Notes under the pieces: model-generated
The model's database searches: none
The model's input: only the letters and a program-made list of their open reading frames with translations
What the model was told of the DNA's origin: nothing
Assembly (NCBI RefSeq): GCF_058153355.1
Contig: NZ_JBLWLY010000002.1
DNA: 64,000 nucleotides
Direction: 5' to 3' (one strand)
DNA from: a plasmid
In this document: in pieces, positions 30,157-31,503 of the stretch
Layout: every line of letters begins with the position of its first letter
How positions within the stretch are numbered: position 1 is the stretch's first letter
Translations under genes and position numbers: made by a program

Positions 30157-31503
30157 ATGCGTAGCGCCTTCCGGGTTATCCGGACGATACGGGAAAAACA
30201 TGCCTGTATTCAGTGCGATGCCATCGTGCAGGCACCTGCACCTTCGCGGCCCATCGAGCGGGGTATCGCCGGACCGGGGCTGCTGGCCCGCGTGCTGACC
30301 TCGAAGTATACAGAGCACACCCCGTTGTATCGCCAGTCAGAAATATACGGCCGGCAAGGTGTGGAGCTGAGCCGTTCACTGCTGTCGGGTTGGGTGGATG
30401 CATGCTGCCGGCTGCTGTCTCCGCTGGAAGAGGCACTTCATGGCTATGTCATGACTGACGGCAAACTCCATGCCGATGATACCCCGGTCCAGGTACTGCT
30501 GTCGGGTAATAAGAAGACCGGGCGGTTGTGGGCGTATGTTCGTGATGACTGCAACGCCGGGTCAGCGTTGGCACCTGCAGTGTGGTTCGCTTACAGCCCG
30601 GACAGAAAAGGCATCCATCCGCAGACTCATCTTGCCTGCTTCAGCGGTGTGCTGCAAGCGGATGCGTGCGCCGGGTTCAACGAGCTGTATCGCAATGGTC
30701 GGATAACGGAAGCTGCCTGCATGGGCTCATGCCCGCCGAAAGATCCACGATGTGCACGTTTGCATCCCGTCAGCACTGACGGAAGAAGCCCTGGGGCAGA
30801 TCGGTCAGTTGTACGCCATAGAGGCGGATATAAGCAGTAGCAATGTCCAGAGTTGTTTTAGAAACATCAATACCCACACAAAGCGGATTTGGCTGACTCA
30901 TTATTACCCATCCTTGCAAATGCGTTATGAATTACGGACAACTGTTCGGGTTTCAGATGAGTGGCTCAGCGTATGCGCCATTTGCTTACATACGGGCTTA
31001 AACCCTAAGGGGCACCAGGCTGCATACGCTTTGCCAAATCTATTCGCTGCTCATGATAACGAAGAACCAAGATACAAGGGGAATGCCGGCAGAGCAGCGG
31101 CTTGCTGAACGTCAGCGAAAAACGAAACCGCTGTTGAAATCCTTGGAAAGCTGGTTGCGTGAAAAGATGAAGACCCTGTTGCGACACTCAGAGTTGGCGA
31201 AGGCGTTCGCGTATGCACTTAACCAGTGGTCGGCACTGACGTACTATGCGGACGATGGCTGGGTCGAAGCAGACAACAACATCGCTGAAAATGCCCTGCG
31301 GGCGGTCAGTCTGGGTCGTAAAAACTTCCTGTTCTTTGGCTCTGACCATGGTGGTGAGCGGGGAGCGCTACTGTACAGCCTGATCGGGACGTGCAAACTG
31401 AACGACGTGGATCCAGAAAGCTACCTTCGCCATGTGCTTGGCGTCATAGCTGACTTAACACATCCCCGTCAATACGGCCCTCGCTGTACGCTTATTCACA
31501 TGG
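30157..31503 (+). pseudogene. IS66-family TnpC of a third type, 5'-truncated, frameshifted, with internal insertion
   Basis: ORFs 30157..30840, 30752..31108 and 31053..31535 together give TnpC-like sequence; about 250 bp of unrelated sequence between LYAIEADI and MPAEQRLAERQ. Confidence 0.65.

Follow-up and report, generated by a model that had tools for sequence, protein, structure and literature searches.

The closest described systems are the bridge-RNA elements of the IS110 subgroup, whose left end (LE) encodes an RNA containing two loops, one that binds the target and one that binds the donor (Durrant et al. 2024, PMC11208160). In that system the LDG and RDG guides act on the RE-core-LE junction as the target guides do on the target, off-targets with 1–2 mismatches and rG:dT pairs are tolerated, LD-LDG mismatches are poorly tolerated, and the promoter of the bridge RNA lies partly in the right end (RE) and becomes complete only where the circle joins RE and LE (PMC11208160). 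A 2025 preprint reports top-strand-only transfer, with LE-side transfer (LT-RD to a new target) ~10-fold more efficient than RE-side transfer (10.1101/2025.10.25.684509). A small-RNA module is also known for the IS110-family element ISPpu9 of Pseudomonas putida. Its ssr9 modules are multi-copy, bear repeated end boxes and have been seen as circles, and Ssr9, lying downstream of the transposase, is dispensable for transposition (Pares-Guillen et al. 2025, PMC12288879).

The DNA analyzed here is a 64,000-nucleotide stretch (the window) of a diverged F-like plasmid (assembly GCF_058153355.1, contig NZ_JBLWLY010000002.1). The 43–61 kb region of the window matches leading-region and tra genes at 92–94%, and an IS-rich segment is similar to EIEC pINV plasmids and to island DNA of E. 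coli 536. At 30094–31455 it contains an IS66-family tnpC gene, ~97% identical to that of ISEc8, that is 5′-truncated, frameshifted and interrupted. Without the insert, the ISEc8 tnpC reads ...GCGGATATAAGGGGAATGCC... (LYAIEADIRGMPAEQ); at the same place an intact ISEc8 copy (L012) has GAGGCGGATATAAGGGGAATGCCGGCAGAG, which translates to EQIGQLYAIEADIRGMPAEQRLAERQ, the longer reading of the same gene being ...TACGCCATAGAGGCGGATATAAGGGGAATGCCGGCAGAG... In the window, the upstream part of tnpC (30094–30832, plus strand) ends ...GCGGATATA (LYAIEADI), where its alignment to L012 stops, and the downstream part (31079–31455, plus strand) resumes at GGGAATGCC (RGMPAEQRLAERQ...). The initial annotation had rightly observed that the TnpC-like sequence ends at LYAIEADI and restarts at (R)GMPAEQRLAERQ, which are adjacent in intact TnpC.

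The sequence across the insert is GCGGATATA-AG-(30835..31076)-AG-GGGAATGCC, and the extra DNA amounts to exactly 244 bp, consisting of 242 bp of foreign sequence (30835–31076) and a duplicated AG, which is CT on the minus strand. The interval originally assigned to the insert, 30830–31085, is in the right place and a few bases too wide on either side. Compared with intact ISEc8 L012, no tnpC base has been lost; a core CT stands on each side of the insert and the target is otherwise unaltered. Read on the minus strand, the target's left half, CATTCCC (31085→31079, the first 7 nt of the downstream tnpC part), is followed by the left CT copy (31077–31078, AG on the plus strand), the insert, the right CT copy (30833–30834, likewise AG on the plus strand) and the right half of the target, TATAT (30832→30828, the last 5 nt of the upstream tnpC part). 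CT is present at both ends in full-length copies of the element as well.

An insert that is short, largely non-coding and precisely bounded could be a small anonymous transposon or MITE, marked by terminal inverted repeats and a target-site duplication, or could have arisen by local duplication or rearrangement. Indeed, it had been described as a possible small mobile insertion, with a check of its ends, of a target duplication and of other copies proposed. These checks gave a different answer. We found no terminal inverted repeats, the inverted repeats that do occur being internal RNA stems or matches between guides and flanks. There is no classical target duplication, the only repeat being the 2-bp CT core that IS110 recombination typically leaves, and no further copy of the 244-bp form was found in the collections searched. 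Nor is the insert a tandem duplication of its neighbors, as its sole match in the window is itself. The minus strand of the insert is instead 100% identical to positions 1–244 of a 1,170-bp IS110-family element (copies L001, L002 and L005), and we regard an anonymous transposon or a local rearrangement as practically negligible. The description of the insert as foreign, precise and derived from a mobile element was therefore sound, but it is not anonymous: it is the 5′ fifth (244/1,170 bp) of an IS110 element.

The insert comprises the 175-bp LE and the first 23 codons of a DEDD recombinase. Read on the minus strand, it starts TGTATCTTGG..., and the non-coding LE (30902–31076, minus strand; 100% identical to full-length L001 and L002) is followed by an ATG at 30901 and then MSQPNPLCVGIDVSKTTLDIATA. 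By tblastn, codons 1–23 (30833–30901, minus strand) are 100% identical to residues 1–23 of the 323-aa protein WP_000082158.1; this gene fragment includes the first catalytic-motif region, GIDVSK, and is cut after codon 23. MSQPNPLCVGIDVSKTTLDIATA has the usual form of the N-terminus in IS110-family DEDD recombinases. The earlier view that the insert has no obvious coding capacity was thus nearly correct, the rest being a non-coding RNA gene, and missed only these 23 codons on the minus strand. In BLAST searches of complete E. coli genomes and PLSDB, the same 244 bp were found at the 5′ end of genes that carry the annotation "IS110 family (RNA-guided) transposase" and are located chiefly on F-type plasmids. 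The parent element occurs on E. coli F-type plasmids, where it is common in leading regions, and on chromosomes, and its LE is present at ≥99% identity in ~61 complete-genome E. coli records.

Comparison of several insertion contexts defined the full element as 1,170 bp including one core copy. It consists of the 175-bp LE, which starts TGTATC, a 972-bp gene (323 aa) and a short RE ending ...CAAGACAGTTG, with CT on both sides. The parent protein contains the PF01548 (DEDD_Tnp_IS110; 8e-21) and PF02371 (Transposase_20; 3.5e-19) domains and aligns with the IS621 recombinase structure 8wt6 (E 1e-29, 107 bits). The full-length parent therefore has both the N-terminal DEDD/RuvC-like and the C-terminal Tnp recombinase features; the window copy does not. 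A long non-coding LE upstream of the recombinase gene, without terminal inverted repeats, is present in the window. Since only codons 1–23 are kept, the window copy is a remnant of an IS110-subgroup member and not a complete member. There is no serious doubt that the insert is the left end of an IS110 element and contains a bridge RNA gene. The parent element is widespread and carries only the generic RefSeq name quoted above, and this kind of element is already known. ISSso6, found close to the corresponding region in EIEC pINV plasmids, is a different element (24% aa identity to the parent transposase). An Rfam 15 scan of the insert returned no family at threshold; the Xanthomonadaceae sRNA sX15 (RF02234) scored 26.7 bits (E 0.034) against a gathering threshold of 55 bits, on the plus strand and antisense to the bridge RNA, and was rejected.

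The LE is predicted to encode a two-loop bridge RNA whose gene is complete and sequence-perfect. Two stem-loops with internal loops appear both in the minimum-energy fold and in the consensus fold of seven related LEs. The RNAalifold consensus of these LEs (72–100% identical) contains 39 pairs, 5 of which show changes on both sides, for example columns 52:112, where CG is replaced by UA in three sequences. Because the alignment has only 7 sequences of about 5 types, the support from covariation is moderate, and the z-score of the single-sequence fold of the window LE is weak (−1.5). The predicted RNA is encoded on the minus strand within the LE, with its 3′ closing stem extending to ~30896 over the start codon. 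Its target-binding loop (30963–31035) has an outer stem (31035–31020 with 30978–30963), the LTG GGUGCCCCU (31016–31008), which equals the top strand of the left flank apart from the mismatches given below, an inner hairpin (31005–30994) and the RTG AUGUAAG (30991–30985), which is complementary to CT and the right flank. The inverted-repeat finder independently picked up this last complementarity (pair I2). The donor-binding loop (30896–30962) is closed by ACUCAU (30962–30957) pairing with AUGAGU (30901–30896). It contains the LDG ACAGUUG (30945–30939), which equals the last 7 nt of the full-length RE (ACAGTTG-CT), and the RDG UUUGCAAG (30920–30913), of which UGCAAG pairs, one G:T included, with CT and the TGTA at the LE start. 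The window lacks the RE half of the donor.

Together, the LTG GGUGCCCCU and the RTG AUGUAAG specify the target GGTGCCC-CT-TACAT. The tnpC site in the window, CATTCCC-CT-TATAT, matches it at 10/14, the mismatch in the right target half being an rG:dT wobble, and ten further insertion contexts match at 6–13/14. The usual plasmid copies, at GTTGCCC-CT-TACAT, score 13/14. Chromosomal copies with an identical transposase lie at ATTGCCC-CT-TACTT (11/14), GATTCCC-CT-TACGT (11/14), TATACCC-CT-TACGT (10/14) and TGCCCCG-CT-TACAT (10/14), and two contexts in which the left core is TT and not CT, CCGCCCC-TT/CT-TACGT (L022) and CTGCTAC-TT/CT-TATAT (L019), score 8/14 and 6/14. In the window, 18 of ~7,050 CT-centered 14-mers score at least 10, which places the tnpC site in the top ~0.3%. 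Against the 9-nt LTG, its left target half has three mismatches (positions 1, 2 and 4), more than the empty near-cognate sites of the same plasmid. There are two of these, both GTTGCGC-CT-TACATCC (47097–47112 and 52266–52281, minus strand), located inside identical leading-region repeats of at least 225 bp that are homologous to the flanks of occupied plasmid sites. The tnpC site is best read, from these guide matches, as a near-cognate and probably occasional target of the element. As a natural data point on bridge-RNA specificity, the sites share roughly CCC-CT-TA(C/T)(A/G)T and mismatches in the left arm are tolerated.

Guides and insertion-site flanks covary among relatives of the element. 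The RTG of L007, AGCUCAG, matches its CT-GAGCT flank at 7/7, that of L009, GGCUCAG, matches the same flank sequence with one G:T, and that of L010, AUAUCAG, goes with CT-GATAT, the L010 LTG UGCCUUCC matching TGCCTTCC with a 2-nt register shift. In L008 the guide UUACCCCU goes with the flank GTACCCCT, and the LTG matches the left flank. In all, three distinct RTGs match three distinct right flanks at 7/7.

Element positions 245–1170 (926 bp) do not occur in the window copy; with them, 300 recombinase codons and the complete RE are gone. The junction in the window reads, on the minus strand, ...GGACATTGCTACTG-CT-TATATCC, while full-length copies have ...ACTGCT-AACAACG internally and ...GACAGTTG-CT-(target) at the RE. 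The right junction of the 244-bp remnant is GACATTGCTACTGCTTATATCCGCC; that expected for a full-length element at the tnpC site would be CAAGACAGTTGCTTATATCCGCC. The break falls between two TGCT tetranucleotides, at element positions 241 (241–244) and 1167, and the right CT copy at 30833–30834 is also element positions 243–244, the end of the internal TGCT. The terminal TGCT is formed by the last TG of the RE and the CT core, and because this second TGCT includes the core, tnpC resumes without loss. Apart from this exact loss, which extends to the right end, nothing about the remnant is unusual.

On balance, though without great confidence, we favor a history in which a full element inserted into tnpC under the guidance of its bridge RNA and later lost 926 bp in place. 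One loop of the bridge RNA would have paired with the near-cognate target CATTCCC-CT-TATAT and the other with the joined ends of the circular element, and the recombinase would have exchanged strands at the CT core, leaving CT on both sides and no target base lost. The later deletion would have run from codon 24 of the recombinase through the right end, between the internal TGCT (241–244) and the terminal TGCT, and may have been triggered by a recombinase nick at the right junction. The identity of the DNA, the bridge-RNA anatomy, the agreement of guides with flanks and the exact junctions are established; this order of events, insertion and then deletion, and the cause of the deletion we infer. 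Against it stands the precision of the break, as a microhomology deletion would only rarely end exactly at the RE boundary: of 3,111 pairs of four-base repeats in the element, ~10 would give an RE-exact deletion. Since such pairs are rare, the precision has to be put down to ascertainment bias, to a nick that the recombinase made at the RE junction, or to truncation while the element inserted. Also against this history, the left target half fits the LTG less well than do the two empty near-cognate sites of the plasmid. Moreover, a full-length insertion at the tnpC site was found nowhere in the collections searched, which leaves the presumed intermediate unobserved.

Truncation during insertion would leave the same DNA, and only the history would differ. 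The LE-side strand would be transferred alone, and the second joint would be made by a replication or repair template switch at the CT/TGCT microhomology near the nick, an IS110 analogue of 5′-truncated LINE insertions. Such a course would explain, without coincidence, junctions that are exact at the target despite the missing right end, and it agrees with the microhomology at the junction, with the lack of a full-length insertion at the tnpC site and with the reported top-strand-only, LE-favored transfer (10.1101/2025.10.25.684509). However, the same preprint reports no truncated products, the pathway is not yet established, and among 72,556 plasmids no second example was found at the abundant cognate plasmid site. 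In addition, a truncated relative (L008) breaks off at an arbitrary point, where the expected right target half is not matched. We consider truncation at insertion rather unlikely.

The sequence at the breakpoint itself offers little for a guided event. Its left side, GCTACTG, matches the LDG at 3/7 and the LTG at 1–2/7, its right side is unlike RD, and a guided second recombination at the internal breakpoint is not supported, the best guide match being 3/7. The best internal look-alike of the RE, CTCTGGACATTGCT (30839–30852, minus strand), differs from CTCAAGACAGTTGCT by an edit distance of 3. It is suggestively placed, but it sits 6 nt before the breakpoint and not at the crossover, and 28 of 300 shuffles (9%) contained one equally good; we rejected it as the cause, and its relevance is uncertain.

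These features also bear on a mobile, bridge-RNA-only module, in which a minicircle made of the LE and 68 bp more, with its closure at the internal CT, would have been excised and then inserted by a recombinase acting in trans. ISPpu9 provides a parallel, as it forms circles of the small-RNA module only and solo genomic copies exist (PMC12288879), and the remnant does have CT on both sides, its own intact bridge RNA and the best RE look-alike only 6 nt from its breakpoint. Yet that look-alike is not at the break, and the junction of the hypothetical 244-bp circle, ACTGCTTGTATCTTGG, would present GCTACTG-CT to the donor guide, a fit of 3/7 in a system that tolerates LD-LDG mismatches poorly (PMC11208160). 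No second copy was found, the junction pattern had 0 matches in representative genomes and metagenomes, in 5,426 E. coli genomes LEs do not outnumber recombinase bodies, and none of these modules occupies the cognate plasmid site. A minicircle origin is very improbable. The broader proposition that the remnant is the primary product of an alternative IS110 pathway, be it abortive LE-first transfer with a template switch or an internal-CT minicircle, and not of decay, is in our estimate possible but doubtful. If it held, bridge-RNA elements could seed RE-less, guide-RNA-only copies, and such copies would be natural footprints of the single-strand transposition route, which is disputed, and might serve as sources of orphan bridge RNAs.

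The 244-bp truncated form is a one-off in the collections searched. No insert at this tnpC position was found in 5,426 complete E. coli genomes or 72,556 PLSDB plasmids, and the LE-junction pattern for the tnpC site had 0 matches in representative genomes and metagenomes. The truncation pattern, ...ACTGCT followed by any base but A, also had 0 matches in these sets, in searches of limited power, these being exact-match with, in the genome set, a single genome for each species. In complete E. coli genomes, 61 high-identity records contain the LE and 63 the recombinase body just past the breakpoint; since these counts agree, there is no population of orphan left ends in E. coli genomes. A synthetic query representing the stump in the cognate plasmid site retrieved no such structure from PLSDB (72,556 plasmids). 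One record that it matched at 78% coverage (L023) proved to be an empty site beside a different IS110 relative.

The window contains no cognate recombinase. The only other IS110-family sequence in it is an unrelated fragment at 1792–2193. Inspection of the LE suggests a putative −10 box of the bridge RNA promoter, TATCAT (31053–31058, minus strand; LE 19–24). A putative −35, TTGCTT, separated from it by a 17-nt spacer, is formed only where RE, CT and LE are joined in the circular full-length form; the corresponding position in the window is CCCCTT. A consensus promoter scan found no promoter-like site in situ and did not call the RE-CT-LE junction, because its −35 matches at only 3/6 positions. 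With no recombinase, no right end and half a promoter, the remnant is probably silent and immobile, and we infer its lack of expression from these features. It is most likely an ordinary fossil, and movement of the 244-bp piece under its own power is very unlikely. Most likely, it also contributes to inactivating the window copy of tnpC.

For annotation, an unexplained 250-bp interruption becomes an RNA-guided IS110 remnant with a readable guide RNA and target. Should RE-exact loss recur, it would bear on IS110 strand transfer; a single case leaves current understanding unchanged. Apart from a single junction that is mildly curious, the remnant is an ordinary fossil.

The occurrence of an IS110/IS1111-type element inside another mobile element has a parallel in IS4321 and IS5075, two IS1111-subgroup elements whose insertion sites are the terminal repeats of Tn21-family transposons. 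Those elements are specialized for these repeats, whereas the tnpC site is an occasional near-cognate target, with no other insertion there in 5,426 E. coli genomes. The ISPpu9 ssr9-only modules are likewise IS110-family small-RNA pieces without a transposase gene, but the piece in the window is single-copy and lacks a right end, and the RNA it encodes is itself the guide. The nearest ISfinder-named relative of the parent is ISEc32 (L011, a PGAP label), which is of the same family and length class (323/324-aa transposase), shares the stem architecture with compensatory changes and also adjoins F-plasmid leading-region genes. At 64% aa identity and 72% nt identity in the LE, with other guide sequences and the LE terminus TTATATC, it is a separate element.

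The likeness is broadest to IS621 and the IS110-subgroup bridge-RNA elements (PMC11208160; Hiraizumi et al. 2024, PMC11208158). Relative to IS621, the parent has a distantly related recombinase (107 bits, E 1e-29), an RTG of 7 nt and not 4, and a target in an F-plasmid leading-region repeat and not in REP elements, and what the window has is a 244-bp stump that lacks both recombinase and right end. As in IS621, the parent encodes a DEDD + Tnp recombinase, and a long non-coding left end specifies an RNA with target- and donor-binding internal loops, in which the LTG is the left-target top strand and the RTG is complementary to the core and right target. The CT core flanks both ends without inverted repeats, a similar promoter arrangement is possible, with a putative −10 in the LE and a putative −35 that would be completed only across the RE-LE junction, and insertion at off-targets proceeds with a few mismatches, including rG:dT.

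The window contains two empty near-cognate targets for the IS110-family element whose left end interrupts tnpC, both reading GTTGCGC-CT-TACATCC on the (-) strand. One lies at 47097-47112 within a repeat spanning ~46980-47230 and the second at 52266-52281 within a repeat spanning ~52150-52400. The repeats around both targets are identical, GC-rich and at least 225 bp long, and are located in the F-like leading region of the window. On other plasmids, the sites occupied by the same IS110 element read GTTGCCC-CT-TACATCC. The leading-region target is immediately followed on its right by the hairpin ATCCCGGCGGCCTTTTGCCGGGAT. 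Together, the empty sites in the leading-region repeats and the occupied plasmid sites indicate that the natural target of the element is this repeated leading-region sequence, with the hairpin directly on its right.

In two full-length copies of the same element (L019 and L022), the core is TT on the left and CT on the right, which suggests either that a non-CT target core was used or that a mismatch segregated following strand exchange. In L010, a Klebsiella-type plasmid relative (82% amino-acid identity) that adjoins fragments of IS3 and IS66-family (ISKox1) elements, the left target guide (LTG) of the bridge RNA shows an 8-nt match to the left flank, but its register is displaced 2 nt from that of the element in the window, despite equal loop lengths. 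A further relative, the L007/L009 type, is present in about 686 E. coli records, with left ends about 81% identical. It is decayed, carrying internal stops, and is fixed at a single chromosomal locus, where it is flanked by zinc-ribbon genes belonging to a prophage-like island. Against the right flank, its right target guide is still a 7/7 match, whereas its LTG gives only a partial match to the left flank.

A sub-threshold Rfam match to sX15, a Xanthomonadaceae sRNA, was obtained at 30886-31045 (+) (26.7 bits, E 0.034), antisense relative to the bridge RNA, and the reverse complement of the conserved donor-loop motif CCCGAACAGUUG is present in the sX15 consensus. sX15 and asX7 are mutually complementary and plasmid-encoded, with 10 homologues in Stenotrophomonas maltophilia (PMC3300014). 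Both may be transcripts from IS110-family left ends.

The window harbors additional mobile-element pieces. A different IS110-family transposase fragment (1792-2193, (+) strand) shares 47.6% amino-acid identity with residues 181-318 of the parent protein. A group II intron, with its reverse transcriptase/maturase ORF at 28598-29830, resides within a second IS66-family tnpC copy (about 27996-30092), the split pieces of which lie at 27996-28136 and about 29905-30092; E. coli 536 has the same intron-in-tnpC arrangement at 97.8% identity.

In the segment 31455-32096, similarity of the IS110-interrupted tnpC ends near 31455 and IS91-family and IS1 transposase fragments come next; a fimbrial operon starts further on, at 32491. 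The gene order downstream of tnpC in EIEC pINV plasmids (cf. L003 and L004) matches that of the window; however, in those plasmids the IS110-family element ISSso6 separates tnpC from the IS91 fragment.
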